DNA of 60,926 nucleotides, filler included. It is 4 parts of 4 records of this genome, joined end to end, with 100 filler letters (N's around TTAATTAATTAA, not from the genome) between each part and the next. Parts side by side here need not be neighbours in the genome. Positions count along the whole stretch, not along the records: positions 52,936 to 60,926 come from SRR20825019_786; 3 more parts are not named here. The stretch is one strand, 5' to 3'. Shown one piece after another: positions 17,144 through 60,926 of the stretch. The notes beneath the pieces are model-generated. The model had not been told where the DNA came from and made no database searches. It was given only the letters and a program-made list of their open reading frames with translations. Both the position numbers and the translations under genes were made by a program. Numbering within the stretch: the stretch's first letter is position 1; every line of letters starts with the position of its first letter.

Positions 17144-17174
17144 CCGCCTCTTCAGAAATTCAATTTCAGACGTC

Positions 17175-17738
17175 TTAGGACGCGGGCATCGATGACACGC
17201 CCACTTGCGCCGGGCGCAGCAAACGGTCGTGCAGCATGAACCCTTCGGCGGCAACCTGGATGATCTCGCCCGCCTTGGTGCCGGGGACGGGTGCCTCGAA
17301 CATTGCCTGATGGTGTTGCGGATCGAACTTGTCGCCCACTTCGGGCGCGATCATGTCGATGCCGTGCTTTTTGAACACGCTCAACAGCTCGCGCATGGTC
17401 AGCTCGATGCCTTCCAGCAACGGACCCGCAACGCTGCGCTGATCCTCGGTCACGGCGTCCAGCGCGCGTTTCATGTTGTCGTATACCGGCAGCATGTCGC
17501 GGGCCAGCTTGGACCCGCCATAGTTCTCGGCCTCGCGCCGGTCCTTGTCGGACCGCTTGCGCGCGTTTTCCGCGTCGGCCAGCGCCCGCATGAACCGGTC
17601 CTTCAATTGATCCCGTTCAGCGCGCAACTGGTCCAGCTCCAGCGCCTCGTCATCAATCTCGGCCATTTCATCCGCATATGCGTCTGCTTCTGCCGCGTCG
17701 ATGTCGTCCAGGAAATCGTTGTCTTTCGGCTCCGCCAT
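17175..17738 (-). CDS. grpE: Nucleotide exchange factor GrpE
   Basis: RALADAENARKR, FDPQHHQAM, GFMLHDRLLRPAQVGV; downstream of hrcA. Confidence 0.98.
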   Translation of the reverse strand: MAEPKDNDFLDDIDAAEADAYADEMAEIDDEALELDQLRAERDQLKDRFMRALADAENARKRSDKDRREAENYGGSKLARDMLPVYDNMKRALDAVTEDQRSVAGPLLEGIELTMRELLSVFKKHGIDMIAPEVGDKFDPQHHQAMFEAPVPGTKAGEIIQVAAEGFMLHDRLLRPAQVGVSSMPAS

Positions 17739-17747
17739 TCTTCACCT

Positions 17748-18812: not shown

Positions 18813-18921
18813 ATTTGCCTCGGCGTCGCCACTAGACGGGCTGGGTTACAAAAGGTCAATCGTACTTGCGTCACAGGCCCGTGGGGCGTTATCCCCGCCC
18901 CAACAGTGAAAAGGATTTATC

Positions 18922-19635
18922 ATGCGACCTTCGGGAAGAAAACTGGACGAAATGCGTGCCGTGTCGATCGAAACCGGCTTTACCAAACATGCCGAAGGGT
19001 CCGCGCTGATCAAGATCGGGCACACCCATGTCCTGTGCACCGCGACCATCGAGGACCGCGTGCCGCCCTTTATCAAGGGGTCCGGGTTGGGCTGGGTCAC
19101 TGCAGAATACGGGATGCTGCCGCGTGCCACAAACACCCGGATGCGCCGCGAGGCTGCTATGGGCAAACAAGGTGGCCGTACCGTTGAAATCCAACGCCTG
19201 ATCGGCCGCTCGCTGCGGGCGGGCGTGGACCGCTCTGCCTTGGGCGAACGCCAGATCACCATCGACTGTGACGTGCTGCAAGCCGATGGCGGTACCCGCT
19301 GTGCGTCGATCACCGGCGGTTGGGTCGCGCTGAAACTGGCGGTGAACAAGCTGATGAAAGCGGGCGATATCGTCTCTGACCCCTTGGTAGACCCTGTTGC
19401 GGCCGTCAGCTGCGGGATTTACGCGGGCCAGCCGGTTCTGGATCTGGACTACCCTGAAGACAGCGAAGCCGGTGTCGACGGCAACTTTATCCTGACCGGC
19501 ACGGGCCGGTTGATCGAGGTGCAGATGAGCGCCGAAGGCCAGACATTCTCGCGCGATCAGATGAACCAGCTGATGGATCTGGCGGAAAAAGGCGTGGCCG
19601 AACTGGTCGCCGCACAAAAGGCAGCCACGGCATGA
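18922..19635 (+). CDS. rph: Ribonuclease PH
   Basis: [38 protein letters not shown]. Confidence 0.99.
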
Positions 19636-20243
19636 CACGCAAATTCACCGGTGACCGGCTGTTGGTGGCCACTCACAACGCGGGCAAGCTGGAAGAGATG
19701 TTTGCCCTGTTCCAGCCGCTTGGCGTACAGGTCATCGGTGCCGCCGAGATGAAACTGGCGGAGCCGGAAGAAACCGAAAGCACCTTTGTCGGAAACGCCC
19801 GGATCAAGGCGCACGCCGCGGCACAGGCCACCGGCCTGCCCGCCCTGTCGGACGATTCCGGTATTCAGGTCGACGCATTGGACGGCGCCCCCGGCGTTTA
19901 CACCGCGGACTGGGCGGAAACGCCCAATGGCCGCGATTTCCTGATGGCGATGACGAAAACCCGCAATCTTCTGGAAGAACGCAACGCGCCCGAACCCCGC
20001 ACCGCGCGGTTTTGCTCGACGCTGGTGATGGCCTGGCCGGACGGCCATGACGAGGTCTTCGAGGGCACAGTTGAGGGCACATTGGTATGGCCCATTCGCG
20101 GTGAACAAGGCCACGGATATGACCCGATGTTCCAACCGGTTGGTCACGACGTCACCTTTGCAGAAATGACCGCCGACGCAAAGAACAAGATCAGCCATCG
20201 CGCCAATGCGTTCAAAAAACTGATCGACGGCTGCTTTGACTGA
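19632..20243 (+). CDS. rdgB: RdgB/HAM1 non-canonical purine NTP pyrophosphatase
   Basis: [31 protein letters not shown] overlap with rph. Confidence 0.97.
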
Positions 20244-21381
20244 AGATTGGCAAAACGGCGGCTTCGGGATTTACATCCACTGGCCGTTTTGTGCCGCCAA
20301 ATGCCCCTATTGCGACTTTAACAGTCACGTTGCACGCACCATTGACCATGCGGCGTGGCGCAATGCCTATCTGGAAGAGATCCGCAAAGCCGCCGAACAG
20401 ACGCCTGGGCGTATCGTGCACACCGTGTTTTTTGGCGGCGGCACCCCCAGCCTGATGGAGCCCTGGGTCGTCGCCGATATCATCGACGCGATCCGTAAAC
20501 ACTGGCCCACCGCCAACGACATGGAAATCACGCTGGAAGCCAACCCCGGCTCGGTTGAGGCGCAGCGCTTTGCCGATTTCCGCGCGGGGGGCGTGAACCG
20601 CATTTCGATGGGCATTCAGGCGCTGAACGATGAGGATCTGCGCCGGCTGGGCCGTATTCATTCGGCTGACGAGGCGCGCGCCGCATTCGACATTGCGCGC
20701 AAAACCTTTGATCGGGTCAGCTTTGACCTGATTTATGGTCGGCAAAAACAAACTTTGGCTGATTGGGAATCCGAGCTGAAACAGGCTCTGACCATGGCGA
20801 TAGACCACCTTTCGCTGTATCAGCTGACCATCGAGCAAGGCACGGCTTTCGGCGACCGCTACAACGCGGGCAAGCTGGCCGGCCTGCCCGACGAAGACCG
20901 CGCCGCCGATATGTTCACCCTGACCCGCGACATCTGCGCCGATTTCGGCATGCCCGCATATGAGGTCAGCAATCACGCCCGCGATGGCGCGCAATCTCGG
21001 CACAACCTGATTTACTGGCGTTACGGAGATTACGTCGGTATCGGCCCCGGCGCGCATGGTCGGCTGACCCTGAACGGCCAACGGTTTGCCACCGAAGCGC
21101 CCACCAACCCCAAACGCTGGCTGGAAGAGCTGCGACAACTGCCAAACGTCGCCCTGACCGGTGAAGATCAGGCCAACGAATTTCTTTTGATGGGCCTTCG
21201 TCTGACCGATGGCGTGGATTTGGCGCGTTTTGAAGCGCTTTCGGGGCGCTCTGTGGCCCCTGATACGCTGAAAAACCTCTCAGAGCTTGGTTTGCTCGAT
21301 CAGAGAGGCCGAAAAATTTCCGTTACAGAACAAGGTGTTAGCGTTTTGAACGGCGTTTTGCGCGAATTGCTTGCGGATTAG
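20236..21381 (+). CDS. hemW: Radical SAM heme chaperone HemW
   Basis: [35 protein letters not shown]; follows rdgB. Confidence 0.96.
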
Positions 21382-22268
21382 CTTCCGCTGAGGATCCGGC
21401 ACAATTCGTCCAGTTCTTCCAACGTCTTGTACGAAATCGACATCTGACCCGCCTCGGCCCCCGGCTTGTGCGACAGTTGAACGGTCATGCCCAAAGCCGC
21501 CGAAAGATCACCTTCGAGCGCCTTGGTGTCCGCGTCCTTTGTTTCGCCTGCCCGTTTGGAACTTTTGGGCGCTGTTTCTTCGCCCCGACCTTGCATGGAT
21601 TTCACCAAAGCTTCGGTCGCGCGCACGCTCAACCCTTCGGCCACAACCTTTCGTGCGAGCGCCGACGGATCATCCGCCGTGATCAACGCGCGTGCGTGAC
21701 CCGAGGACAGATCGCCCTTGCGCACCATCTCGACGACATCGTCGGGCAATTGCAACAACCGCAACAGGTTCGCGATATGGCTCCGGCTTTTGCCCAAAGC
21801 CTCGGCCATCTTTTCCTGGGTATGGCCAAACTTGTCCATCAACTGACGATAGCCGGCCGCCTCTTCGATCGCGTTCAGATCCGCCCGTTGAATGTTTTCG
21901 ATAATCGCGACTTCCAACACTTCCATGTCGTCAAAGTCGCGCAGGATCACTGGCAGCTCATGCAGTTTTGCCATCTGTGCCGCACGCCAACGGCGCTCGC
22001 CGGCGACGATTTCGAATCCGCCATCTTTCTCGCGCACGATCAGCGGCTGAATCACACCCTTTTCGGCAATCGAGGCCGCCAGATCATCCAGATCGTCCTG
22101 CGTAAACCGTTTGCGCGGCTGATCCGGGTTCGGTTTGACCTGCTCAATCGGAACCATCCGCACACCCGAGGCAGCACTTTCCACGGTCACCTTCTCGGCC
22201 TCGTTAACATCCGCCATCAGCGCTGAAAGCCCACGGCCGAGTCCGCGTTTTTTATCCTTGGGTACCAT
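21378..22268 (-). CDS. parB: Chromosome partitioning protein ParB
   Basis: GLGRGLSAL, IVAGERRWRA, IIENIQRADLN, HTH region. Confidence 0.98.
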   Translation of the reverse strand: MVPKDKKRGLGRGLSALMADVNEAEKVTVESAASGVRMVPIEQVKPNPDQPRKRFTQDDLDDLAASIAEKGVIQPLIVREKDGGFEIVAGERRWRAAQMAKLHELPVILRDFDDMEVLEVAIIENIQRADLNAIEEAAGYRQLMDKFGHTQEKMAEALGKSRSHIANLLRLLQLPDDVVEMVRKGDLSSGHARALITADDPSALARKVVAEGLSVRATEALVKSMQGRGEETAPKSSKRAGETKDADTKALEGDLSAALGMTVQLSHKPGAEAGQMSISYKTLEELDELCRILSGS

Positions 22269-22269
22269 C

Positions 22270-23085
22270 TCAGGCCTCTACTTTCTGTCGTGCATTGTTC
22301 CGAATAAATTCAACCGCCAGGTCGCGATAGGCTTTGGCCCCCCGCGAAGTTGGGTCATAGCTCAGCACCGGCATCGCAAAAGACGGCGCTTCCGACACGC
22401 GCACGTTGCGCGGGATCACAGTCTTGAACACCAGTTCGCCCAGGTTGTCGCGCGCGTCCTGTTCGACCTGCAAACTCAAGTTGTTGCGTTGGTCGTACAT
22501 GGTCAACACAATACCTTCGATCCGAAGGTCCTTGTTCCCCGATTGCCGGACCTCTCGAACGGTCAACATCAATTGCGACAAACCTTCGAGCGCAAAGAAT
22601 TCGGATTGCAGCGGCACCAGGACGGAATGCGCGGCAATCATCGCGTTCACCGTCAACAGGTTCAACGATGGCGGGCAATCAATCAGCACATAATCAAAGC
22701 CAAAAGGGTCCATCTGGATCTGGCGCAGCGCATCATGCAGCAGAAAGCTGCGTTTTTCGTTGGACATCAATTCAAGGTCCGCAGAGCTCAGGTCCACCGT
22801 CGCCGGTATGATAAACAGATTTGCCTCGGACGTGGGCAGGATCGCCTCGACCAGGTCGACGTCTTCCAATAACAACTCGTAGGTCGTCAGAACCCGGTCA
22901 TCTACCTCGATCCCAAGCCCGGTCGACGCATTCCCTTGCGGATCAAGATCCACCAACAGAACCTTGCGCCCCTGCTCGGCCAGCGCCGCAGCAAGGTTGA
23001 TCGACGTCGTCGTTTTGCCGACGCCGCCTTTCTGGTTTGCAATTGCCACGATCTTGGGTCCGATGGGGCGTGTTGGGTCAGACAC
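22270..23085 (-). CDS. parA: Chromosome partitioning ATPase ParA/Soj
   Basis: NQKGGVGKTTT, DLDPQGN, DCPPSL, IPRNVRVSEAPS. Confidence 0.98.
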   Translation of the reverse strand: MSDPTRPIGPKIVAIANQKGGVGKTTTSINLAAALAEQGRKVLLVDLDPQGNASTGLGIEVDDRVLTTYELLLEDVDLVEAILPTSEANLFIIPATVDLSSADLELMSNEKRSFLLHDALRQIQMDPFGFDYVLIDCPPSLNLLTVNAMIAAHSVLVPLQSEFFALEGLSQLMLTVREVRQSGNKDLRIEGIVLTMYDQRNNLSLQVEQDARDNLGELVFKTVIPRNVRVSEAPSFAMPVLSYDPTSRGAKAYRDLAVEFIRNNARQKVEA

Positions 23086-23695
23086 GTTTCAACTCCTTGA
23101 TCTGCAAAACGGCTGCCTGCGCGTCCGTATGGCTGGTGTGAGCAATACAATCAAATGTCCATGCTTTTTGGGCTGTATCAAGCTCTGACTGCCAGATTTC
23201 CCCTTTTGGGAACAACGCTTGCCCTTCGGAAGACATATGTTGTGCGACAAATTCAAGCAATTCGGAAAGCTGCGACAACGCCCGTGCCGAAATGACATCG
23301 GCATTCAGCGGGTCGATCTCTTCAATCCGCCGGGCCACAACAGTCGCGTTCAGGCCAATTTCGCGTATCGCGGTGCGCAGAAAGGTCGATTTTCGCTGAT
23401 CGCTTTCCACCAGAGTAAATCTGGTGTCAGGGGCCTCATGTTTGGCGAAGATCGCACAAATGATGGCTGGAAACCCGCCTCCGCTGCCAAAATCGGCCCA
23501 ATGCGCAACTTTTGGTGCCAGCTTCCAAACCTGTGCCGAATCCCAGATGTGCCGGTTCCACAACTCGGGCGCGCTGGAACGCGAAACAAGGTTGATCTTG
23601 GCATTCCATTTCAGGAAGAGGTCATGAAAGCCTTGAAGGTCATGCAATGTTTCACGTGAAACATCATCGGCAAGCCAGTCCGGTACAATCGTCAT
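23078..23695 (-). CDS. rsmG: 16S rRNA m7G527 methyltransferase RsmG (GidB)
   Basis: [35 protein letters not shown]. Confidence 0.97.
23648..23663. promoter_or_regulatory. parS site inside rsmG
   Basis: Perfect palindrome TGTTTCACGTGAAACA, just upstream of parAB. Confidence 0.95.
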
Positions 23696-25551
23696 GCGGA
23701 TTTCTTCTTGTGTTGCCGCAGCTTAGCCAAAAGCAACGCCAATGCCGCTGGCGTCATCCCTTCAACCCGCGCAGCCTGGGCAAGGTTGCTCGGCCGGATG
23801 CGCTCAAGCTTTGAGGTCAGCTCGTTCGAAAGACCGCTGATGCCCGCGTAAACGAATCCGTCTGGAATCACATGCGCTTCGTCCTTTTGCAGGCGGTCGA
23901 TATCCTTTTGCTGACGGTCGATGTAGTTTGCATAAAGCGCGTCGCGGGCAAGTTGGACCTGAATAGGCGGATCAATGGTGTCCAGATCGGGCTGAACCCG
24001 AACTACATCGAAAAACTGAACTTCCGGAAAAGCAAGAAGTTGATAGGGCGTCCGCCGTGTCCCGTCCTCTTTGACCGCAATTCCAGCGGCGGTGATTTGC
24101 TTTGGCGAGTATTTCTCGCGCGTCATCGCCTGGTAACCCGCCTCAAGCGCGTCGCGCTTGGCCTCAAACAGACGGCGGCGGCCTTCGGAAACCACACCCA
24201 GTTCGATCGCCTGTGGAGTCAGCCGTTGGTCAGCGTTATCGGCGCGCAGGGACAACCGGAACTCGGCCCGTGACGTGAACATCCGATACGGCTCGGTCAC
24301 CCCGCGTGTTGTCAGATCGTCGATCATCACGCCAATATAGCTGGTTGCGCGTCCAAAATGCACAGGATCTCGCCCCTGCGCCAGACATGCGGCATTCAGA
24401 CCGGCAACCATTCCTTGGGCTGCGGCCTCTTCATAGCCCGTTGTCCCGTTGATCTGCCCCGCAAGGAACAAGTGCGATGTCGCACGCAGTTGCAGCGAGG
24501 CGTCCAGCGCGCGCGGATCGACATAGTCGTATTCAATCGCATATCCGGGTTGCAGGATCACCGCCTCTTCCAGCCCGACGATGGAATGGATGTAATCCTG
24601 CTGCACATCGACAGGCAGAGATGTTGAAATCCCGTTGGGGTAAACGGTGTTGCCCGTCAGGCTTTCTGGTTCCAGAAACACCTGGTGCGAGGATTTGTCG
24701 GCAAAACGCACGACTTTATCCTCGATCGATGGGCAATAGCGCGGGCCTGTGCCATCGATATGGCCGCCATACATCGCGGACAGTGAAAGGTTTTTCGAAA
24801 TAATCTCGTGGGTGCGTTCATTCGTGTGCGTGATGCCGCAAGACACCTGACGGGCGGACAATTGCGTTGTTTCAAACGAGAAAAACGCGGGATCATCGTC
24901 GCCCTGCTGTTCTTCGAGGATCGACCAGTTGATAGTGCGCGTGTCCAGACGCGGCGGAGTGCCCGTCTTGAGCCGTCCCAATGGCAGACCAAAACTGTCG
25001 ATCCGCTCTGCCAGACGAACCGAAGCTTTGTCGCCCATGCGCCCGCCCGAGCGTTTCTCTTCGCCAATATGGATAATGCCGCGCAAGAATGTGCCCGTCG
25101 TCAGAACGACGGTCGAGCAGTCGATCAAAGTGCCGTCCGCGAGTTCGACGCCCGTCACCTGCGTGCCAGTCATTTTCAGGTCGACCACTTCGCCCTCGAC
25201 CACAGTCAGGTTCGGCTGCGCCAACGTCGCCGCCAGCATTTCGCGCTGGTAGATTGCGCGGTCGGCCTGCGCGCGCGGTCCCTGGACCGCGGGGCCTTTG
25301 CGGCGATTCAGCAGGCGGAACTGGATACCGGCCTTGTCTGCGACTTTGCCCATGACGCCGTCCATGGCGTCAATCTCGCGCACCAGGTGGCCTTTGCCCA
25401 AGCCACCAATCGCTGGGTTGCACGACATAACGCCAATGCCGGACAACGTCATCGTAACCAGCGCCGTATTCGCCCCCATCCGCGCAGCCGCATGGGCGGC
25501 CTCTGCTCCTGCATGGCCGCCACCGATTACCAGAACGTCAAAATGTTTCAC
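23692..25551 (-). CDS. mnmG: tRNA U34 modification enzyme MnmG (GidA)
   Basis: [40 protein letters not shown]; start probably GTG at 25551 (GGAG upstream), alternatively ATG 25569. Confidence 0.98.
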
Positions 25552-25559
25552 GTGAAACA
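25544..25559. promoter_or_regulatory. parS site at the mnmG start
   Basis: Perfect palindrome TGTTTCACGTGAAACA. Confidence 0.95.
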
Positions 25560-25565
25560 CTCCTG

Positions 25566-26846
25566 TCATTTACCCAGGCAGAAGCTGGAAAAGATTTCAT
25601 CCAGCAGGTTTTCTACATCGATGCGACCCACAAGGAATTCAAGGCTGCGAATCGCGATCCGCAACTCCTCTGCCGCCAAGTCATAAACCTCTGGCCCCTG
25701 TTTGACGAGGTCTTGCGCGGTCTCCAAAGCTGCAACGGCGGATTGCAGCGAGGTCCGGTGCCGTTCACGCGAGGTCAGGCCGGCGTGCGCAACTTTGTCG
25801 GAAAACACAGCTTTCACCGCTTGAACCAGATCCGTCACACCAGCGCCGGTCACACCGGACACCCCTGTCCCGTCGGACCGCAGATCAGCCTTGGGGGCGA
25901 CGACGATGTCCTGTGGCAAGGGTGTCAGCGGCAGCGCAGACATATCATCTGTCAGGAACACCCGCAGGTCCGCCGTTCTGGCGCGGGCGATGGCGCGTTC
26001 GATCCCGATCGCTTCCACATGATCATCGCTGTCGCGCAGGCCAGCGGTGTCCAGGAATGTCACCGGCAAACCATCCAGATCCATGCGCACTTCGATCACA
26101 TCGCGGGTGGTGCCTGCGAATTCCGAGGTGATGGCCGCATCACGACCAGCTAACGCATTGAGAAGAGTAGACTTTCCGGCGTTTGGCAGACCAACGATGG
26201 CCACTTCGAACCCGGACCGCACCCGTTCGGCCACATAGGACCGCGAAACCTCGTCCGACGCCTGCAAAATGACCTCGGCAAGCAGATCGACGACCTCTGG
26301 CGCCACATCAACCGGCACGTCTTCATCGGCAAAATCAATGGTGACTTCCAGCAACGACGCCGCATGGATCAGCCGTGCGCGCCAGTCCTCGACAACCTTG
26401 CTCAGCGCGCCTTCGACGGTCTGCATCGCCTGGGCACGTTGGAATTCCGTTTCGGCGTCGATCAGATCAGCCAGCCCCTCGACCTGCGCCAGGTCCATCT
26501 TGCCGTTTTCCAAGGCACGGCGGGTGAATTCACCGGGTTCCGCCAGACGCAGCCCTTCGATCTCACCCAGAACGGACAGGACCCGTTGCAGGATGGCGAT
26601 GCTGCCGTGCAGGTGCAGCTCGATCACGTCCTCGCCGGTGAAACTGTGCGGCGCGGCGAATGTCAGGACCAGCGCACGGTCCAACAGTTCGTCACCCGCA
26701 CGCACGGCACGGACAGCAAAGCACCCCGCGTCAGGCAGCGCACCGCACAGCATCTGACCCGCGTGATGGGCGGACGGACCGGACACGCGCACAACGGCCA
26801 CGCCCGCGCGGCCCTGCGCCGTGGCAAGGGCGAAAATCGTATCCAT
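25566..26846 (-). CDS. mnmE: tRNA modification GTPase MnmE (TrmE)
   Basis: [32 protein letters not shown]-terminal FCLGK. Confidence 0.98.
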
Positions 26847-26864
26847 CGGTCACGCCCCCAAGGG

Positions 26865-27379
26865 TCAGGTGTTCATGGAATCGAAGAAATCCGAATTTGT
26901 CTTGGTTTGCTTCAATTTGGAAATCAGGAACTCGATCGCGTCGGTGGTGCCCATCGGGTTCAGGATGCGACGCAGGACAAAGGTTTTGGCCAGATCGTTT
27001 TTGTCGACCAGCAGTTCCTCTTTCCGGGTGCCGGATTTCAGGATGTCGATGGCCGGGAACACGCGCTTGTCCGCGATCTTGCGGTCCAGAACGATTTCCG
27101 AGTTACCGGTGCCTTTGAATTCTTCAAAGATCACCTCGTCCATCCGGCTGCCGGTGTCGATCAGCGCGGTTGCGATGATGGTCAGGCTGCCGCCCTCTTC
27201 AATGTTCCGCGCGGCACCAAAGAACCGTTTGGGGCGTTGCAGGGCGTTGGCGTCCACACCACCGGTCAGAACCTTGCCCGACGACGGCACAACGGTGTTG
27301 AACGCGCGGCCCAGACGGGTGATCGAATCCAGCAGGATCACAACGTCGCGCTTGTGTTCGACCAGACGCTTTGCCTTTT
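26865..27379 (-). CDS. rho: Transcription termination factor Rho, 5'-truncated
   Basis: [35 protein letters not shown]. Confidence 0.98.
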
Positions 27380-27479
27380 NNNNNNNNNNNNNNNNNNNNN
27401 NNNNNNNNNNNNNNNNNNNNNNNTTAATTAATTAANNNNNNNNNNNNNNNNNNNNNNNNNNNNNNNNNNNNNNNNNNNN
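27380..27479. other. Artificial contig spacer
   Basis: N44-TTAATTAATTAA-N44. Confidence 0.99.
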
Positions 27480-38192: not shown

Positions 38193-41100
38193 TCATTGTC
38201 TGGCCAGCTCACTCTTCGGATACGAAGTGCCGCCATTTCTAACATACTTGCTTTCCTCGTCCTTGAATAGGTAATACTGACGACGAGAAACAGAATCTGT
38301 GCTAAAGCAGAACGAATCCTTCCGCACTTCGAGAGGAGGAGGCCACCTCTCCACTGTCTCATCCAAAACCTCTGCAAAATATGCAATATACGACTTTCTA
38401 CAGTCACGAGAGTCAGAGACAGGAGCATGCACGGACGAAGAGCCTACCCTTGGCCTCGGCGCTCGAGCGCCTTCCTATACAGCCTTGATGGGCGCCAAAG
38501 TTTCAATATCCCGTCGTCTTCTCCCGAAAAGAAACTGCGGCGAGAAACGATGCTGTGTGTACATTCTCCATCAAGATGATCAACGATTCTGGTTGAGCAG
38601 CATTAGTCAACAATATAGCAGATCGGGATGCAACTTCACCCTCTTACCTGGCTCCTTTAATCTTCAAGATCTTCATCATAATTGCATTTCGTTCATTGGG
38701 GGATATGTATCGTCGTTCAATATGGAACACAGGTTGTGAAATGTGATCATCCACACGAACATAATTGGCGATAAGATCGATTTCGGCCTGGTGCGACTGA
38801 TGAATGCAGTTTGTATATTTGGCTTTTTTGGCAACTCGTGGACTCGAACGATATGGCGAAGATGCCTCTAGTTCATACTTGAGACGTGCATGTGTTCGAG
38901 ACCGTGTGTTGCCCGCTGGAGAAGATGGTGTCGCTTTTCTGCTTGAAGATATATTGGGTGAACACGAGGTTGTCTGCTTGGGGGACGGCTTCGTCTGGCT
39001 GGGAGTCATATTTCCCTTCAAGTCAAGGTGCCCACCCACCGCAAGCCCCATCTTCATCTCGGATTCATCTACTCCCAGATACGCCGCATGAACTTGGAGT
39101 TCTTGAGATCCTGCGGGCTTATTCATTGCTTCTCCTATCAGCAAATACTCTTGCACAGTAAGTCCGGCCATGTAGGCCCGGGTTCCTGTGTATTTGTGGC
39201 ATCCTCCAAACTGGGGAAACCGCATGAGATATCTGAGTGGGGTTGGTTCTCCGCCCATGTTGATGAGAAATTCTGTGTACTTCACATCAATGACGAATAT
39301 ATGAGAGGGAACACGAATCACGCAGTCGGTCATTGGCCCCCCGGGGAATGTTTCCAGCCATGGATACTTCTGCCACTGCAACGTAGGGCCGAGTTTCTTG
39401 TCAATTTCTCCCCATTGACGCATATATTGATGGAACTCCTTCGCCTGTTCATGTGCTTGCACCGGTACAGTAAGCAGGACCAAGAAGCGAGGTTCGTCGT
39501 CCTCGCCGCGTTCCATTCGGTGCTTGTTTACCAGCAGGCCCACCACTAGCGTGCACAAGTATGCCCCTAAGGAATTCTCCTGACTGTACTGTGCTCCTAT
39601 CACCGCCATTGTAACTGTCTCTCTCAACCTTTCATCATAGTATCTTAGCAGAGCAATTAGGCATGATTCAATATTCGCATGGCCACTATACCTCTTCATC
39701 TTATACCATTGGCGGTTGTTCGGAATATATTTGGAATGGATGTGCTTCACCACAATGCCCTCCTGGCGCTGGGCGAGTGATCGACCAAAATTCAACTTGA
39801 TAGTCTCCATTCCCGCGGTCCTCTGCGACCCCCTAAGGTCAACTCGCTTTGCATCACTAATATGAACGTGGTTCGGTCGCGGCTTAATTATTTTCTTCAG
39901 ACGCTCTCGCCGTTCCTCCAGTGGCTTTGGCATGTAGTTTAAGCCATTATACCACAATATGTCAAACAAAACAACCAAAAGATGCCGGCCCTTCTTGATA
40001 TCCTCTCCAAACCTTGTTCCCATTTGCTGCACGGTGCCGAAGGGGAGTATTTCACCCCTACTCGTGGCATTTGTCAGAATAGACGTCTTGTATCAGCTAT
40101 CGCACCCTTACCTCGTCTCATCGTAGGCAAGCAACTCGCCATCTAGGATGCATTCTTGGACCGTATCACCAGCATCTATCCCCGTTGAGGTTCCAAGGCA
40201 GGCAAGAATATGTTCTTTCACATCAATACGGTCTGCAGTGCTGTCACGCCCACCTCGACTGAATATCCGAACCTTTTCGTCGAGATCCTTGCTGTAATGA
40301 ATCTGTATGCGCTCTCCGTCATATTTCTGTTCGCAGTAGTACACCGGATATGGTGCATTTGCGAGGGATGCTACCATCTTGTTTGTGTCGGGACTCATTC
40401 TACGACAGAGGGCTACCGAAACATAGACTCCAATGGATGGGCAGAGCTGGTCTTGAATGAACTTGGAATCTACGCCCCCCTGGTTCTGCGCCTGAATAAC
40501 TGCTTTGATTCTTCGGCAAGCAACCACAAAATTGGAGTTTCTGATCCAGATCCGATTCATCAACTCATGAAAGCCATTGAAGAAGTGACTTGGCCTGATA
40601 TTCTTGAAACGCATATCCTTTAAAATGATGCGGACAGCCCATTTTGCCTCGACAGCAGTCAAATGAACGAACAAGTCACTCAGTACACCACTTCCATTCC
40701 TCTTTACAGTGCGTTCGTGAACACAACCAGACTGTTTCTGCCGATAGACTGAAGCCAGGTACTCCAATGCGTTGTGCATGGCATTAATGGTAATAGTGGG
40801 AGTTGTGGGACTCCCCCGGTTGACCACAAATGCCTTCACGCGTAGGGATAAGTCTCCGATAGATTCATCATGCCCCTTCCACGCCTCCGTGCGGTAGTCC
40901 TCCAGCCACTTCGTTCTTCTGTGGCCCTTTTGAAGCCCATAGGCTGACAACAACTCCTTCAGAAGAGTATACTCTTTCATATCATAGACTCGTTCACGAT
41001 CAAGCTCGGGCACCATCAAACGCAATGTTTGTTGCAGGTCTCCAAGACCTCCTTTCTCAAGGCTTGTGAAGAAATCATGAACGATATTCTCTACCGCATC

Positions 41101-41226
41101 ACCTTTTCGAATACCAGTCGCTCTCTTGCTCTGATCCAACTTTTCAACATCCTCTAAGAGTTGACATAATAGAGCAAAAACCTGATTTTCGGAGGAGACC
41201 TCTGCTTTAGCAGACGCCCTTCTCAT
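38193..41226 (-). CDS. ATP-dependent DNA ligase, LIG4-like (DBD, adenylation, OB, probable BRCT), multi-exon
   Basis: RVYDMKE, EQKYDGERIQIH (motif I), ILDGELLAYD (III), FDILWYNG (IIIa), EGIVVK (IV), WYKMK (V), MRFP; 3' end approximate. Confidence 0.88.
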
Positions 41227-52835: not shown

Positions 52836-52935
52836 NNNNNNNNNNNNNNNNNNNNNNNNNNNNNNNNNNNNNNNNNNNNTTAATTAATTAANNNNNNNNN
52901 NNNNNNNNNNNNNNNNNNNNNNNNNNNNNNNNNNN
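52836..52935. other. Artificial contig spacer
   Basis: N44-TTAATTAATTAA-N44. Confidence 0.99.
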
Positions 52936-53034
52936 GGGGAGATGATAGTCAATAATTGGCGCCATCCTAGAGCCGATGATCAGTGCAAGGGCCACTCACT
53001 CGTGCAACCCTTCCCACCCCGCACGCACTCAGTC

Positions 53035-54134
53035 ATGCAAACGCTCTGTCTGATACCTTACGCGCAGTCACCCACAAGCGCAGACGTCGCGCGACTTGTG
53101 CCGAACGCTACGGCCGCGAGACGGAGTGATAAGTACGGAAGGGTAAGTTGGCTTGAATGTGCGGCACGGGTAGAAATCTGGAGGTCCGCGGTGTATCACC
53201 GAGAGTGGGGGTGGTGCCGTGCATGGGAAGGCCGGGTCTCGGCACCGTCGATGGATTGGTCAGTCTCAGACGGGTCCGACTGCCGGGGGGCGCGCCGGGG
53301 ATAGTTTGAGGTTTCGACCGGCCCGGCGGGCGGGCGCAGCGGCGGTTGCTGGAGAAGGCATTGACACGTGTCGCCGCAGACACCACTGCACCTTGCCTCG
53401 GAGCTGACAGAAGATGGGGACAGTGTGCGGTACATGGTGGGCATTACCGGGGTGGACCCCGGCGTGAGGGATAACTATGGCACGACGCCGTTGCACAACG
53501 CAGCGCTGAACGCCAATGGCGGCGGCTGCCGAGCGATCGCGCTGCTGGCTGGCGCAGGGGCGGATGTGAATGTCGAGGCGGACACTGGGAACACCCCGCT
53601 GTTCATCGCAATACAGTGTACGTTGTTGGGCTAAGCCGCTTGCGGGCAGGGCGTGATGCTGATCGGGGACAACACCAGATGGCCAGGCTCCGGCAGTCGC
53701 GGCATTACTGGACGCCGGTGCGCTCAGAACGCGTCGCCATGCCCGGCGCGGCGTCACCCCGGCGCAGTTTGCCACCGAGCGGGGACGGGATGACATCGCC
53801 GAAGTACTAAGACGTAAGTGCAATAGATGCTCAGGGCGCGAGGAACTTTGGGGGGTTGGGTTAGTGTTAGGGTTAGGTTAGATGTGATCTCGGGAGGTGT
53901 GGCTGTGTGGCTGTCTGAACGGACAATGCAGGTCACATCCCTGCCCCGTGCATCACGGCACTGGTGCTGGCCCGGAGATTGGAGGTGCGGTCTCAGTCCG
54001 AGGAGAGGGAGCTGGATGATCGAGCCGGAACACTGGTGATCCTTCCAGCAGATATTCTCGAGACCGTGGCTGCCGTGTTTGCCCGCGAGGCCGGCGGGAG
54101 GCTTGTTAAGAAGGGTGGAACGAACACCTTGTAA
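53035..54134 (+). CDS. Ankyrin-repeat protein (multi-exon)
   Basis: DKYGR|TPLHLA across intron 53142-53379, GTTPLHNAA, GADVN..GNTPLFIA, GVTPAQFA; ends approximate. Confidence 0.8.
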
Positions 54135-54296
54135 CCTCGGTGAGGCTACGATCTACGGAGCTTACATCCATACATGTGAAAGCAGACATCGTTGCTCCCT
54201 GACTTCAGCCATCTGAATGGCTAGTGCATGACCAAAAAATCCGCAAAAACAAGAAACAAATCCCTTGATGATATTTACAAAGGGACTCGCGGTATA

Positions 54297-57113
54297 CTAA
54301 TAAGGAACATCCTTGCCCAAGATGGCGGCGGCATACTGAAGCGTTATAATGTCGCGTTTCTTGGACGATTCGTCGGTGACCGGAGCAATATTGGCAATCA
54401 TGGCGGATGGAGAGCTAGTGGACAAGGCCGGGTACAGAATGCGGGCGAGCTGGCTCTCTCTGATCTCCTGGGTAGGAACAGCCTTGGGGTTGCGACCGAT
54501 CTTGACAATCATGTTCTTGAGAGCGAAGAGCCCCTGGCGAATGATGGTGCCCTGGCCGTCAATCTTGGCATTGCCAGATGACGTGTCGCTCATAAGCTCC
54601 AGTCCCGCCAGATCTACCAGTGTGATCTGTTTTCTGGGGTTCTCCTGCTTGGCGCTGCTGAACAATCCAATCCTGAACACACGGTGAGAGCGAGAGCTGC
54701 CCTGGGGGTTGCCCTCTGTGATAGCCACCTCGCGCATCCTGCCTCCACGGCGATATAGCCGGAGGGTCTCTGCCGGGTCGGTGACAGTTACCCATGGGTC
54801 ATGACGGACGCCCCTCTTGTTCACAATCTTCTTGGATCCAACGATCTTGAGCACCTTATTGACCTCAAATACATCGAGTGTCTTGAGAATCGTGTTGCCT
54901 GCCTTGGTCACCCTGTTACGCCCACGGCTGTCCTGCTCGGGGTGGAGCAAATCGCGGAGGACAGTGTTCTGTGAGGTGCTGGTGGGTGTGTCGCCATATA
55001 TCTCAAAGTCCATCACCTTGATGACCCAGCCGGACTGGGTGGACTTGAATTGGAACAACGTATCCATGATTCGTGGGATCAACCCGGGGTCGGTGGTGTC
55101 GCCCTCCATGGTGTAGGTCTTCCCCGTTCCAGTATAGCCGAAACAGAAGATCGTTCCCCAGCTGACCTCTCTCGGTTTCTGGAGCATCACATCCAAAACC
55201 TTGCCATCATTAGTCACGACCTCCTCAAACACTTCCTCGTTCGAAGGTCCGCGGTCTAGCGAATCCGTGAAATCCGACGGCGAAAACACTCCGGTGTAGC
55301 TCATCGACTCATCGGGGAACACCTCCTGCTTGGTCGACACAGCAAGATCCACCGATGTCTCAGGATACGTCACCGTGCACTGGTTCTCCTCGTCATCACA
55401 GCTGAGGTTGTACTCGTCGCTCGGTGACTCGTGCGCAGGCAGGATGGGCCGCACGCGGACGTACGTGTCCAGCCTCTCATTCTTGCCGCGCTTTTCCATC
55501 CTCACCTCATCCTTAGCCTCCGCCCGCAGGTGGACCACTCGGGGTGCCTTCTTCTTCACGGGCTTCTCATCAGCGGGGCGAATGTTCAATGCCTCCTGGG
55601 CATACTTCAGTGTGTCCGTGGTGAACTTCAGATGCTCCTCATCCGGTGAGACCGTTGCAATCATGACGGTCTGCATTTCAGAGGGATGGCCGCGGAACGA
55701 GCTGTCCAGGGCACGCGTCAGGGTGCTATCCCGAAGATTCGGCTTGTTACCCGCGGCCAGCGCGCTGATAACACGGGCCAGCGCCTCCAGGCTGGAGTTG
55801 ATCGCCAGGCCTTGGTTCTTGGCAACGCTATTCTTGCCAGATGTGGACAGCTCCTTCCCTGCAAGGTCAACCAGGGTCAACGTCCCCGTGCGGGTGGCGC
55901 CGGAGTTCGAGGTGATCGCGTACTTGACCTCGATAATCATATGGGAGCGCGAGCTCTGCTTGTTCATCGCAGTGGCTTCAGTCACCCGGTTGGCCGACCA
56001 AGTCTTGATCAAGTCCCCGACTTTCTGCTGTGCATACCTCAGTCGCTCACCTGCGGACTTAGAATCCAGGTCAGGCAAAATCCTTGCCAGATCAAGGGGG
56101 ATGAAGGGGTCCTGCAAGCCGGGCAGCTTGTTTCCGTTACCGTCGTACGACACAAGCTTAGGGGTGGTGACATCGTCACTGGTGAAGAACTTAATGTCCG
56201 CATTCTGCGTCTCAGCCTTCTTGTTCAGCCTGAACCCGTCCATATTCACATTCGCCGAGCTCTTGCCGTTGTTGTACAACTGATACGGCAGAACCTGGAT
56301 ATCTGTCGAAGCCGCCTCCTTACTCTTCTCATATAGATCAACAAAGAGATCCCCGAGTGCCATCTGCAGAACGCCGAACTCATTGCCTGACTCGGCATCA
56401 CGCGACCTGCCCGTGCCCTCCATAGTGAACGTCTTTCCGGAGCCGGACTGCCCATACACAAACACGGTTCCTTTGAAGCCGTCCTCGGTCGCGACCCGGT
56501 TTACAATGTGACGAACGCCGCTCTCAGCGTAGGCTTGCTTGTTGTTGGCGGATGTGCCGAGAACGTTGCTAAAGCCATCATAGGCAGTGGGCGCCCCAGA
56601 CTTGTTATACACAATAGCCGCGAAGCCTGCTCCGTGAGACTTTCCCCTGACGCACTCGGTCTCGCCGCTCTTAGGCGGGCCCCGCACTCGGACCACGGAG
56701 AGTACAGGCTGGTTCTCAGAGAACACATCGCGGTCCTCAAGGGCGGGCTGCTCCTCCCCAAGCGTCTCGTCATCATCGATGTCGGACGGAAGCACTTTGT
56801 CGTCGACAGCAACACCGCCCAGTTGGCCGGCCTCCTCCTTGACGGCAGGCGCTGGAACTTCATGGTCCCCGGTCACGTCAGCGTCGTGTTGCGGTGGAGG
56901 CGGGTCGTCCTCAACTCCATCCTCCAGCCTTCTCAGCTCCTCTCGGCGCTTCTTCAGATTTTCGAGCTCGAGCTCCTTGGCCTGGATGGCCTGAGCCAGT
57001 TTTTGGTTCTTTCTCGCCAGGTCACTGCGGCCTCCTGCCACCAGCCTGTCGGCTGCTAAGGCGGTCCCTACGACTGCCAGCAGGAACAGGACCAGTGCCA
57101 CCCTCGATCCCAT
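54297..57113 (-). CDS. Kinesin-like protein with two tandem motor domains and an apparent signal peptide, intronless
   Basis: Motor 1 (aa ~135-511): VRVR, GQSGSGKT, NKQSSRSH, LVDLAGKE, INSSL, RDSTLTRAL. Motor 2 (aa ~546-933): VRVRP, GYTGTGKT, SSRSH, LVDLAGLE, RESQLARIL. Confidence 0.92.
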   Translation of the reverse strand: MGSRVALVLFLLAVVGTALAADRLVAGGRSDLARKNQKLAQAIQAKELELENLKKRREELRRLEDGVEDDPPPPQHDADVTGDHEVPAPAVKEEAGQLGGVAVDDKVLPSDIDDDETLGEEQPALEDRDVFSENQPVLSVVRVRGPPKSGETECVRGKSHGAGFAAIVYNKSGAPTAYDGFSNVLGTSANNKQAYAESGVRHIVNRVATEDGFKGTVFVYGQSGSGKTFTMEGTGRSRDAESGNEFGVLQMALGDLFVDLYEKSKEAASTDIQVLPYQLYNNGKSSANVNMDGFRLNKKAETQNADIKFFTSDDVTTPKLVSYDGNGNKLPGLQDPFIPLDLARILPDLDSKSAGERLRYAQQKVGDLIKTWSANRVTEATAMNKQSSRSHMIIEVKYAITSNSGATRTGTLTLVDLAGKELSTSGKNSVAKNQGLAINSSLEALARVISALAAGNKPNLRDSTLTRALDSSFRGHPSEMQTVMIATVSPDEEHLKFTTDTLKYAQEALNIRPADEKPVKKKAPRVVHLRAEAKDEVRMEKRGKNERLDTYVRVRPILPAHESPSDEYNLSCDDEENQCTVTYPETSVDLAVSTKQEVFPDESMSYTGVFSPSDFTDSLDRGPSNEEVFEEVVTNDGKVLDVMLQKPREVSWGTIFCFGYTGTGKTYTMEGDTTDPGLIPRIMDTLFQFKSTQSGWVIKVMDFEIYGDTPTSTSQNTVLRDLLHPEQDSRGRNRVTKAGNTILKTLDVFEVNKVLKIVGSKKIVNKRGVRHDPWVTVTDPAETLRLYRRGGRMREVAITEGNPQGSSRSHRVFRIGLFSSAKQENPRKQITLVDLAGLELMSDTSSGNAKIDGQGTIIRQGLFALKNMIVKIGRNPKAVPTQEIRESQLARILYPALSTSSPSAMIANIAPVTDESSKKRDIITLQYAAAILGKDVPY

Positions 57114-57154
57114 GGTGTTACCGATACAGTTCGGAAGACCTGCCTAGTCTGGTA

Positions 57155-57163
57155 CTTTATATA
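57155..57163 (-). promoter_or_regulatory. Candidate TATA box for the kinesin gene
   Basis: TATATAAAG on the minus strand ~45 bp upstream of ATG 57113, at the island edge. Confidence 0.5.
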
Positions 57164-57179
57164 CGAGTGAGCAGCCCTC

Positions 57180-57700
57180 GCTCCCCGCGTCCGAGCGGCC
57201 AGGCCGGGCACACCCGCCTCGGAGCCACCGCCGACACGGCCGGGCCGTGCCGGGGCCGGGCCAGGCGGGCCGGGGCGGGGGTGACGAGGGACCGGACCGC
57301 CGACGGGCCCCCGCCACAGTGCGCACGGCACTGATGAGGCCCTCGGACTCGTCGGAGATGACGGGGAACCGTAGCCGGTCACGGGGGTATGACCTACACC
57401 GGGATCGCCCAACCCAAATATATCGGTATATCGAGACCATGAGATGCCGCCAGTCCGCGGGGCTGTGCGGCCGGCGCGCCGGGCCGGGCGCCCGCCGGGG
57501 CGCCCCCCCCGGCGCCCCCCCGCCGCCGGCGGCCCGGCCGGCCCGCCGGCCGGGCGGCCGGGGGTCACCTCCGTCCACGCGCTCTCCCGGGACCGGACTG
57601 CAGGACTGCACTCGGTGGCGCCCGGGCCCGGCCACGGCGCCCGCGCGGGGGCGCCCGGTCGTGACGGTCCCCCGCCGTACCGGACCAGCGGCTCACGCCA
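57180..57700. promoter_or_regulatory. GC-rich island between divergent kinesin and Sec14 genes
   Basis: Pure G/C run ~57465-57565; TATA-like elements on both flanks. Confidence 0.62.
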
Positions 57701-57751
57701 CGGTGCACTTATATCAACTCAGTGGCTTCAGTAGCAGCGAGGTGGCACCCG

Positions 57752-58774
57752 ATGAACTGCTTCCGTAAAACGCACCGGCGCTCACCGTCATCCGACGACC
57801 TACCGGCCGTGGCGCCCACATATGATGGGGACCCCAGGTTCACCCTAAGTGCGGAGGAGACGAGGTGGTGCGTCGAGCTAAGAGAGGCGCTGCGAGCGGC
57901 GGGTGTTGCAGAGCCCCGACCGGACTTGATGTTGGCCCAGTTTGCCATCATTGGGAAGGGGAACGTGCGGAAGGCAGTCAAGCGTGTGAAGAACTACCGG
58001 AAAGTGATCTTGGGCGAATACGGTTATTCTTTGGAGAAGGCCCGAGCTAATGGACACTTCATGAATGCGAAGTGGCCTGGTATGGTCTTAGCGGCCGCGC
58101 CACTGTCCACTGGTGAGCCAGTGGTTGCTGTGGATGTTCTTCCGTACCGCCCGTCGCAGCTGGAGTGGGACACCGAGTGGCCAAGACTGATTGTTGAGTT
58201 TGTGATGATTATGGATGCGGTGAACTGTGACCTTGAGTGCATCCGGAAGGGTGGCTCCATGGTGATTCACATGGAGGGCATGGGATGGCACAACTTCAAC
58301 TTGAAGATGGAGGAGAAGGCCGCTCCGCTCTATCAGGAGGCTTACCCTTGCAGGTTCCATTCCTTCCCGCTGGTCGACGCAGGCCCAATCGCCACGATCA
58401 TAATGCGGCTCGTAAGAGCGTTTCTGAAAAAAAAGATTGCTGACCGTATGATAATCTGTAAGAAATCGGAGCTGTATTCATCCAAGTATGGCTACACGAG
58501 AGAAGGGCTCCCTCCGGTCCTTGGAGGGACATATGACCGGCCGCTTGACGAGTACATTTCAGACCTGCTCCAGCGACGGGCCGAGGCGGAAAGCAGGGTG
58601 AGGGTGTCTCCCCCGAGCGAAGATGGCTCCGCCGTAGCGCCACGTGATGCCACGCCTCCGGAAGCGAGGCAGTCTTTCTTTGGCCAGTTTTGTGGCTGCG
58701 GGAGCGGTACCGAGGTGGGACCTCTGAAGAGCGATTCCGATCCAATCCACGCCGATCATCCAAGCGCGGACTGA
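57752..58774 (+). CDS. CRAL-TRIO/Sec14 lipid-binding protein, intronless
   Basis: DLMLAQF..KAVKRVKNY (CRAL-TRIO N), EGMGWHNF, QEAYPCRF, FLKKKIADRM, LPPVLGGT. Confidence 0.85.
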   Translation: MNCFRKTHRRSPSSDDLPAVAPTYDGDPRFTLSAEETRWCVELREALRAAGVAEPRPDLMLAQFAIIGKGNVRKAVKRVKNYRKVILGEYGYSLEKARANGHFMNAKWPGMVLAAAPLSTGEPVVAVDVLPYRPSQLEWDTEWPRLIVEFVMIMDAVNCDLECIRKGGSMVIHMEGMGWHNFNLKMEEKAAPLYQEAYPCRFHSFPLVDAGPIATIIMRLVRAFLKKKIADRMIICKKSELYSSKYGYTREGLPPVLGGTYDRPLDEYISDLLQRRAEAESRVRVSPPSEDGSAVAPRDATPPEARQSFFGQFCGCGSGTEVGPLKSDSDPIHADHPSAD

Positions 58775-59596
58775 ATACTGTCACATCTTGCAGAATATGA
58801 CAAATTACTATGGTATATATATGACATTAGCATGTTGGCGACGCGGAGGGGAGACTGTCAGTGTCTGCGCAAGGTTTGATAAATCACTGATCACGAGTGG
58901 CGTGCCTCCTTCCACGGAGAGTCGATGGCGGATGGATGTGCGAGGACGGATCGGATCTTGTTTATATCTCGGTTGTCGTGACGAGCCTGTATGGAGCGTG
59001 CCACCGTCCACGTGGTCCGTCATAGGGCACGATGAAGTGGCGCGACTGCCACAGGACCGGGGGCCCGGCCGGCGGGAGAATGAGAGCGCGGCATCTGTGC
59101 TCCTAACTTGGTAGCATTAGTGGATATGTCGTGTACACCTTTGTCTAACAATGTAAATTCATTATGTTGAGATATCTGTTATATTAAGGGGTATTTACCG
59201 AAATTGAGACTTGAATCCACCTGAACAACTGACTGACAACTGGAAATTGAAACTGACCGGAGCGGACCGTCCGCGGGGTGCCGTGCACGCCGGCGCCCCT
59301 CGGCCTCCTGGGCCCGGCCCCCGGCCGCCTGACTCGGAAACCGCCCAGCAGTGCGTTGCTGAGGTCCCGGACGTCCTCACCATGGACAAGTGACGCCACT
59401 CACGGTCACCGCGCCGCACGCCACGTCGGCCAAGGAGGCGGGGTTATCCCGAGGCTGCGGCCATTGTGGCAGTACGGCTCCACGGGTGTGTGGCACGCCT
59501 GCCGTTGTCCGGCTTGAACCAGGGAACCTCTATAAGTGAACCGCTTGCTGGGTGACGGATTAGTCACCTCGACGAGGCCAGCCTTTCACGATGTTG

Positions 59597-60816
59597 ATGG
59601 GCCTTGCACTGAGTGTAAGTCGCGCACAGGATGGTGGCGGGTTCGACTGGTTCTAACTGTTATTTGCAGACAATTGGAGTAAGGGTGTAGCTGTGGCGGG
59701 CGTAGCGACGTCGTGGGTTAACTGTTGCTTGCAGATTGGTTGGATTGCCTTTACCAACAGCAAGAAGAGAGGCAGCAGGAAGAGCGAGGTGGGCTGCAGG
59801 GCTGTGGCTGGTGGTGTGATGTGGTGATTTGTTGGGGGGCGGATGGTCAAGTGTTCAGGAGCCCGGCATGTCGCTTCTAGTTTGTGACAGTGAGGCGTGG
59901 TATCGGTGTATGTGGTGAGGGCCCGGGCTATTGAGGGGTACCTATGTTATCCAGTCACTCCGACATTTGAGAAACGGGCGATTGTGGACTTGTCCGCACG
60001 CCCCCTGGCCCTCACAGTCCCGCCCACGTGCCTCTATATGGATGCACTCGGTGTTACACAAGTCGCCGTCACGCCGGTGGTGCGAACGCTCCTCCCGTTC
60101 TGAGCGGCCTAGGCGGCATGGCACTGGCAACTGGGCAGCGAAGGGGACTAGGGTTGAGGTTAGGTTAGGAGTACCTTGTGAGGTACCTAGTGGGTGGACG
60201 TCATGGCCTTGTAGCACCTTTGGTCGGGTCGTCTCTGGGCGTGAAGTGTTGACAGTGTGCGATCTGATGACTTACCGTTGGGGCAGGTCCGCGTCTTGAT
60301 CCTCGGGCTGGACAACGCCGGAAAGACCACCGTATTGAAGCGCCATGTGCGTGAGGATATTGCGCACATTACGCCAACCCAAGGTTGTACTTTCAGTCGT
60401 GCCGGCGCAACAGGGGTCTGACGGGGGGGTCTTTCGCAGGCTTCAATGTCAAGACGTTCCAGACCGAAGGACTGAAGCTGACGGCGTGGGACCTGGGTGG
60501 CCAGAAGAGCATCCGGCCATTCTGGAAGGGATACTTTGAAGGCTCCGACGCCATTGTGAGTTCGGGGCATCGGAACTACCGGTCGGGCGGAATAGCGGCT
60601 AATTTTACTGTAGATGTATATAATCGACAGTAGCGACAAGAAGCGTTTCGAAGAGGCCGGGAATGAGTTGAACTCGCTCCTGGATGAGGTGGGGTGGGCT
60701 GGGGGTGCTGTAGTTGTGGAGGCTGACAGTGGTGGTCTCAGGACATGCTTGCGTCTGTTCCGCTGTTGATCTTTGCCAACAAGCAGGACCTTATCAATGC
60801 TGCTACCCCGGCCGAG
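59597..60816 (+). CDS. Arf-like small GTPase, ARL3/ARL2 group (multi-exon, 3'-truncated)
   Basis: Exons from 60287: LGLDNAGKTT, ITPTQGFNVK, WDLGGQKSIRPFW, DSSDKKRFEE, FANKQDL; putative first exon MGLALS at 59597 is less certain. Confidence 0.88.
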
Positions 60817-60926
60817 GTGAGTGAAGCAATGATTCCGGGTGATGTCTCTGTTCCTCCGCCCTGTCTCTTTACATGTCTGCTTTTGTGCGTGTTGGGACGG
60901 GGGGGGCGGGGGGGGGGGGGGGGGGG

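Follow-up and report, generated by a model that had tools for sequence, protein, structure and literature searches.

A transcribed kinesin gene encoding two motor domains and a signal-sequence-like N-terminus, a candidate membrane-anchored motor

The DNA analyzed here (referred to as the window, i.e. the whole stretch of 60,926 nucleotides, filler included) consists of several joined parts, the last of which, an N-free piece validated by RNA contigs (positions 52936–60926; record SRR20825019_786), contains a gene for an unusual kinesin. The gene is an intronless open reading frame (ORF) of 938 codons plus a stop codon, located on the minus strand (54297–57113), and its predicted product carries two kinesin motor domains preceded by a hydrophobic, signal-sequence-like N-terminus. 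This N-terminus is encoded by codons 1–20 of the ORF, which correspond exactly to positions 57054–57113 (minus strand). It had been singled out in an earlier note, made from the nucleotide sequence, as an apparent cleavable signal peptide.

Signal peptides typically have hydrophobic h-regions of 7–15 residues and obey the −3/−1 rule of von Heijne. The first 20 residues of the kinesin can be divided accordingly into (i) an n-region, MGSR, with one arginine (R4), (ii) an h-region, V5–V15, composed of 11 hydrophobic residues and thus within the 7–15 range, and (iii) a c-region, GTALA, ending at a putative signal peptidase site after A20. The core is followed by the polar, helix-breaking pair G16-T17 (positions −5/−4), and the stretch A18-L19-A20, after which A21-D22 follow, places small residues (A18 and A20) at −3 and −1. 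R4, the V5–V15 core, G16-T17 and the A18/A20 pair together reproduce the anatomy of a Sec-type signal peptide.

Hydrophobicity analysis (Kyte-Doolittle scale) showed that the N-terminal segment is the sole hydrophobic segment of the 938-aa protein. The highest 11-mer value along the chain (3.49) belongs to the stretch that begins at residue 5, 19-mers with a value above 1.6 start at residues 1–9 only, and no hydrophobic 19-mer was found outside residues 1–27 when the full protein was scanned. A value of 3.49 within the first 35 residues was reached by two of 20,000 composition-matched shuffles. The segment also ranks first among the 68 ATG-initiated ORFs of at least 100 aa that lie outside the bacterial block of the window (described below). 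Among 362 other kinesins, taken from database matches, an N-terminal 11-mer scoring at least 2.5 was present in a single case, P0017, an insect KIF11 gene model. The signal-peptide-like anatomy described in the earlier note (basic n-region, hydrophobic h-region, A-x-A motif) is therefore borne out by the sequence and its hydrophobicity, and the accompanying statement that kinesins normally have no such N-terminus holds for 361 of the 362 sampled proteins.

The uncharged hydrophobic span extends beyond the h-region, from V5 to A21 (57051–57101, minus strand), and comprises the 17 residues between R4 and D22. It represents a candidate membrane anchor: the 17-mer has a Hessa sum of −2.5, and the 19-mer Kyte-Doolittle value is 2.17, above the classical threshold of 1.6. 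AlphaFold2 predicted a single helix for residues 2–24, with a predicted local distance difference test score (pLDDT) of about 72, and a break at residues 25–28. Two mitochondrial interpretations were considered. A presequence was rejected, as the segment does not form an amphipathic basic helix, and an outer-membrane anchor was judged less likely, the core being very hydrophobic and immediately followed by D22.

Transcription of the gene was examined using one public run (X1, whose kind is not on record), in which 78% of the words sampled from the region are present; the X1 contigs mapped on 52936–60926 are 99% or more alike. X1 was read as RNA because its contigs contain eight GT..AG joints in neighbouring genes as well as cDNA/library adaptor loose ends. 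A contig of 2272 nt spans positions 54880–57125 without a joint, and a second one covers 53932–54909, so that the whole ORF is covered and unspliced. The absence of an intron before the motors, as proposed in the earlier note, is thus confirmed by the RNA.

The contig ends define an mRNA 5′ end at position 57125 and a 5′ untranslated region of 12 nt (57114–57125, minus strand). Past 57125 the longer contig continues into a 26-letter loose end, which we take to be the reverse complement of the end of a template-switching oligonucleotide together with a transposase adaptor. A strand-invasion artefact is unlikely, since the three genomic bases upstream of 57125 are not GGG. RNA depth is zero in 57208–57474, which was considered only jointly with the adaptor-marked end. 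A TATA box, TATATAAA (57156–57163, minus strand), is located 31–38 nt upstream of the mRNA 5′ end (−38 to −31) and 43–50 nt upstream of the ATG; the TATA-like element noted previously at about 45 bp upstream is therefore real. The same spacing was found in the neighbouring Arf-family gene, whose TATAAG (59532–59537) lies 29–34 nt before its adaptor-marked 5′ end at 59566.

The start codon lies in the context ACCATGG, with an in-frame TAG 33 nt upstream. After M1, the reading frame contains no methionine until residue 231, which falls within the P-loop region of motor 1; the interval includes eight ATGs in other frames. Since M1 is the only in-frame methionine before the first P-loop, no product that includes motor 1 can lack the hydrophobic segment at its start; the segment is thus transcribed and, necessarily, translated. 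The RNA 5′ end, the TATA box and the reading frame all support the ATG chosen in the earlier note, and the contigs of this run neither start downstream of the first 20 codons nor splice them out, two of the observations that the note had named as speaking against its proposal. The contigs, which come from one run, show presence only, and minor downstream starts may therefore also occur.

Behind the N-terminal segment, the protein is predicted to consist of five further regions (all minus strand). A long, charged helix (residues 29–66; 56916–57029), which is a candidate coiled coil, was modelled with block pLDDT values of up to 95. It is followed by an acidic, proline-rich disordered spacer of 70 residues (67–136; 56706–56915), for which no secondary structure was predicted (pLDDT 39–65), and by motor domain 1 (137–508; 55590–56705), with pLDDT mostly above 85 and a low-confidence insert at approximately residues 285–335. 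An inter-motor linker (509–552; 55458–55589), containing a neck-linker-like stretch, a basic patch and a helix (525–543), connects it to motor domain 2 (553–938; 54300–55457), modelled with a predicted template modelling score (pTM) of 0.87. The AlphaFold2 models were built for residues 1–545 and 540–938, using alignments of 99 rows drawn from the kinesin matches.

Both motors match the Pfam kinesin motor profile PF00225, which scored 307.4 bits (cut-off 29.3) over three stretches, the best of which (553–930) corresponds to profile positions 1–323 of 327. Each motor contains the P-loop GxxxxGK[TS], the switch I motif SSRSH and the switch II motif DLAGxE: GQSGSGKT at residue 221, SSRSH at 387 and DLAGKE at 416 in motor 1, and GYTGTGKT at 659, SSRSH at 806 and DLAGLE at 834 in motor 2. 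Foldseek comparisons gave target-normalised TM-scores of 0.78–0.83 for motor 1 against the kinesin-1, OSM-3 and Eg5 motors, and of 0.74–0.84 for motor 2 against solved kinesin motors. By all the profile, motif and fold features tested, the protein belongs to the kinesin superfamily. The two motors share 27% identity, and the models indicate two complete, divergent kinesin heads in one chain; motor 1, the linker and motor 2 as far as codon 745 are joined in a single RNA contig. The motor profile match stops eight residues before the protein end, which leaves no C-terminal neck or tail. Residues C572 and C579 were considered as a luminal disulfide, but are probably core substitutions, at positions where most other kinesins have V or I.

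Similarity searches placed this protein at a distance from all kinesins retrieved. Word-based searches with residues 1–500 and 540–938 gave best identities of 30–36%. The best matches are scattered over kinesin-5, -2, -1, -3, -8 and -14 (23–36% identity), and the protein could not be assigned to a named family, its identity to kinesin-1, -2 and -5 reaching only about 30–36%. A HMMER search of 1.84 billion representatives yielded 23,193 matches at E ≤ 0.001, only seven of which were at E ≤ 1e-30. In the ESM Atlas, the whole protein hit generic kinesin clusters only, and residues 1–136 gave no usable match. Pattern scans of metagenome and viral contigs retrieved no relative, and a viral origin was rejected, as the viral scans revealed no viral relative.

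Nine of the 150 HMMER matches listed were inspected by eye, and none of them is an ortholog. P0095, P0097, P0098, P0107 and P0110 contain near-identical repeated blocks, probably assembly or gene-model duplications. P0101 was dismissed as a double-motor relative, its second motor being only partial. P0096, P0100 and P0106 have two diverged motors and are otherwise unrelated to the kinesin described here.

Comparison of the allele represented in the RNA run with the genome sequence revealed 18 base differences in 17 codons, with an overall ratio of nonsynonymous to synonymous polymorphism (pN/pS) of 0.31. The motors gave a ratio of 0.21 (4 nonsynonymous and 6 synonymous changes), and residues 1–134 one of 0.55 (5 nonsynonymous and 3 synonymous changes). 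Small as these counts are, they agree with constraint on the motors and a more relaxed N-terminal region. Within the leader, the RNA-run allele differs by a silent change at L7 and by F10L, and just past it by V25G and A26V; A18-L19-A20 and the hydrophobic character of the segment are kept.

The reading that we favour, although tentatively, and which the earlier note had listed last among its options, is that an uncleaved or poorly cleaved signal anchor of the endoplasmic reticulum (ER) type ties cytosol-facing motors to a membrane. The N-terminal ER-type signal sequence would stay on the protein, or be removed inefficiently, and would act as a signal anchor. V5–A21 would be embedded in a membrane, most likely that of the ER or an ER-derived endomembrane, while the cytosolic part would comprise the helix of residues 29–66, the acidic spacer of 70 residues and the two motor heads. 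An organelle could thereby be wired to microtubules directly, with no adaptor, for positioning, tubule extension or sliding. Membrane insertion, non-cleavage, the cytosolic orientation, the choice of membrane and any motility are what we infer.

A signal anchor was judged most likely because the motors keep their catalytic motifs, look constrained and need cytosolic microtubules; as modelled, they look functional and would hence depend on cytosolic ATP and microtubules. The uncharged span of 17 residues, with its 19-mer value of 2.17, is long for a signal-peptide core. With a charge of +1 before the segment and of +2 in the 15 residues behind it, the C-flank is at least as positive as the N-flank, which allows an orientation with the N-terminus out and the C-terminus in the cytosol. 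The predicted order, in which an anchor and a helix precede a long flexible spacer and the motors, would suit a tethered motor, and with no sequence to spare behind motor 2, an anchor could be accommodated at the N-terminus only. By analogy, direct membrane anchoring of kinesins appears to recur in nature, as judged from Dictyostelium Kif9 (discussed below) and from tail-bearing database kinesins: transmembrane-like C-terminal tails were found in 5 of the 362 other sampled kinesins (P0201, P0215, P0111, P0122 and P0100).

Several observations weigh against an anchor. The N-terminus is that of a textbook cleavable signal peptide, with an 11-residue h-core, G-T at −5/−4 and A-x-A at −3/−1. Its 17 uncharged residues are short for a membrane span, for which about 19 or more are usual, and D22 follows directly. 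The two flanks differ little in charge, so that no orientation is forcefully predicted. No ortholog, including one that would show conservation of the N-terminus, was found among the 1.84 billion representatives, and no N-terminally anchored kinesin was found in the literature searched (by phrase matching).

A cleaved signal peptide is the main, if somewhat less likely, alternative to the anchor. Translocation into the ER and cleavage after A20 would produce a luminal, extrusome, surface or exported two-headed kinesin, which could act on prey or host microtubules or have a non-microtubule function. Besides the canonical n/h/c anatomy, with the A-x-A motif and a helix breaker at −5, this agrees with the length of the uncharged span, whose 17 residues are below the approximately 19–20 usual for anchors, and from what is known of signal peptides a predictor would very probably call one here. 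The protein contains no other hydrophobic segment and neither a KDEL-like end nor a tail of the glycosylphosphatidylinositol type, and its few cysteines (4) and N-x-S/T sequons (3; N170, N439 and N569) across 938 residues are compatible with ER passage, without being diagnostic. However, the secretory lumen contains no microtubules, the motors look constrained, like working cytosolic motors, nothing marks the organism as a parasite or as an extrusome-bearing predator, and a secreted kinesin was not found in the literature searched. It is quite unlikely that the protein is both cleaved and exported and acts on microtubules other than those of its own cytosol (in prey, a host or an endosymbiont-derived compartment), as envisaged in the earlier note; the only features that would point to such a secreted or extrusome effector are the canonical A-x-A motif and the shortness of the hydrophobic span. 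If true, this would be the first secreted kinesin effector. Sulfitobacter/Pseudosulfitobacter-type bacteria are common in phytoplankton cultures, and the presence of a marine contaminant of this type in the scaffold (see below) would be in line with the highly improbable option of a bipartite leader, with the signal peptide as its first half, routing the kinesin to the periplastidal compartment of a complex-plastid alga. The region after the putative cleavage site, with a net charge of +4 over 26 residues (by visual count, six K/R against two D), is loosely transit-peptide-like. Stroma-directed leaders have an aromatic residue or leucine at +1, and their transit peptides are unstructured, hydroxylated and basic. 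Here, by contrast, the +1 residue is alanine, which departs from the pattern of complex-plastid leaders, the supposed transit region is a confidently predicted helix continuing into the candidate coiled coil, and there is no sign of a plastid in the organism, none of the 11 ORFs scanned being recognizably plastid-related.

It is also unlikely that the segment has no dedicated targeting role, the gene being a young, fast-evolving orphan with an accidentally hydrophobic start, or its product starting elsewhere (at a non-AUG codon or a minor downstream start). The protein would then be an ordinary soluble motor, or would have little function. The failure to find an ortholog, with only seven of the 1.84 billion representatives matching at E ≤ 1e-30, is in line with an orphan of this kind, as is the faster change of residues 1–134 between the alleles (5 nonsynonymous versus 3 synonymous changes), and the contigs leave room for minor downstream starts. 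Nevertheless, a hydrophobic run this strong arose in only two of the 20,000 shuffles, the character of the segment is kept in the second allele, and no usable downstream AUG precedes the first P-loop. Moreover, an N-terminal hydrophobic core of this strength is normally captured by the signal recognition particle.

Known proteins resemble parts of this arrangement. Cytosol-facing N-terminal ER signal anchors occur in cytochrome P450, NADH-cytochrome b5 reductase, kinectin and p180, in which a coiled coil or a catalytic domain in the cytosol likewise comes after a very short N-terminal stub and one hydrophobic segment. As in b5 reductase, the first two residues of the kinesin, M-G, fit a loose N-myristoylation pattern. 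In contrast to the segment described here, the anchors of these four proteins are usually longer and have no A-x-A motif, and none of them carries a motor domain. With Sec-type cleavable signal peptides, the N-terminus shares the basic n-region, the 11-residue h-core, the G/T break and A-x-A at −3/−1, but the passenger, unlike that of secretory proteins, is a pair of motor domains with no known substrate in the secretory lumen. Fungal chitin synthases that carry a myosin motor domain combine a cytoskeletal motor and an integral membrane protein in one chain; they differ in that the motor is a myosin rather than a kinesin, the enzyme spans the membrane several times and the sequences are unrelated.

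Kinesin-1, -2 and -5, which provided the best sequence and structure matches, have the motor fold and the ATPase motifs in common with both heads, but contain one motor per chain, with heads paired by a coiled coil and cargo bound via tails or adaptors. The predicted proteins P0096, P0100 and P0106 combine two diverged motors in one chain, as here. They are unrelated to it beyond the motor fold, have no hydrophobic N-terminus and represent unverified gene models, possibly fused tandem genes.

Among kinesins, the closest parallel to the proposed anchor is Kif9 of Dictyostelium, a kinesin-13 with a C-terminal transmembrane domain that is termed “rather unique” in the excerpt from PMC11816917. 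According to this excerpt, Kif9 has one internal motor and a C-terminal anchor of about 23 residues, and resides at the nuclear envelope. The likeness would lie in the kinesin chain itself being an integral membrane protein (as proposed here), which couples an organelle to microtubules with no adaptor. Compared with Kif9 as portrayed there, the kinesin of the window has an N-terminal, signal-peptide-like segment with 17 uncharged residues and two motors, the second of which ends the protein; a C-terminal transmembrane segment of the Kif9 type was looked for and was absent. The unrelated tail-bearing kinesins mentioned above suggest that tail anchoring is wider than the single Dictyostelium case in the excerpt.

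Neither a kinesin with a signal peptide or N-terminal anchor nor a natural tandem-motor kinesin was found in the literature searched. In PMC1434745, the terms “signal peptide” and “two motor” do not occur, and “transmembrane” appears in table legends only. Two features had no counterpart in this literature: a kinesin whose N-terminus is an ER-type signal sequence, and a transcript-verified chain with two diverged heads. As a rule, kinesins are soluble in the cytosol, and tails and adaptors link them to their cargo. Either outcome would be new. If anchored, the protein would represent a new, direct wiring of membranes to microtubules by an N-terminally anchored, built-in dimer of heads; if translocated, it would be the first kinesin directed to the secretory pathway. 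Its tandem heads also bear on how two heads may be coordinated with no dimerising neck. For now, the value of the case is limited, as it concerns a single orphan gene with no orthologs to show conservation.

The remainder of the window was also inspected. Identical gap patterns (44 N, 12 bases and 44 N) are present at 15804–15903, 27380–27479 and 52836–52935; they represent either joins of the scaffold or masked sequence, and the window thus consists of at least four pieces. Comparison with the Rfam database at gathering thresholds gave no match. The second piece (15904–27379) is an alphaproteobacterial block in which mutS, hrcA, rph, a hemN-like gene, parB, mnmG and mnmE were recognized by ORF reading. 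It is colinear with, and 97.6% identical over 9,685 nt to, a contig of Sulfitobacter sp., and 93.2% identical to Pseudosulfitobacter pseudonitzschiae. On these sequence grounds, the block is a contaminant contig joined into a eukaryotic scaffold rather than a product of gene transfer, and the Sulfitobacter contaminant suggests a marine culture or sample.

The host of the kinesin gene is a eukaryote with short canonical introns (53–498 nt) and TATA promoters. A gene similar to DNA ligase IV (38644–41226, minus strand) occupies two ORFs, over which the Pfam domains DNA_ligase_A_N and DNA_ligase_A_M are split, presumably because an intron lies between them. Its best identities are 26–31%, with matches spread over many groups, which shows that the lineage is an isolated one.

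The kinesin gene is flanked by a convergent neighbour on one side and a divergent one on the other. The former (52936–54200, plus strand) encodes ankyrin-like repeats, recognized by eye, and contains three GT..AG introns (53141–53379, 53617–53679 and 53813–53932). Its RNA contig extends over the kinesin 3′ end to position 54909, so that the 3′ ends of the two genes overlap or abut. On the other side, an island of approximately 70% G+C (57126–57740), which has no RNA cover, separates the kinesin gene from a CRAL/TRIO-domain gene on the plus strand, and constitutes their shared divergent promoter region; similar G+C peaks occur between other genes of the window. The RNA contig of the CRAL/TRIO-domain gene begins at 57741, and its ATG is at 57752. 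It is followed by the Arf-family gene (Pfam PF00025), which has its ATG at 59591, downstream of the adaptor-marked end at 59566. Intron density is uneven among these genes: the kinesin gene (2.8 kb) and the CRAL/TRIO-domain gene (1 kb; 57752–58774) have none, and the Arf-family gene (1.3 kb; 59566–60926) has at least five. The latter also includes a micro-exon of 9 nt (59670–59678), which is present in the RNA contig between the joints at 59614 and 59735 and is flanked in the genome by AG and GT.

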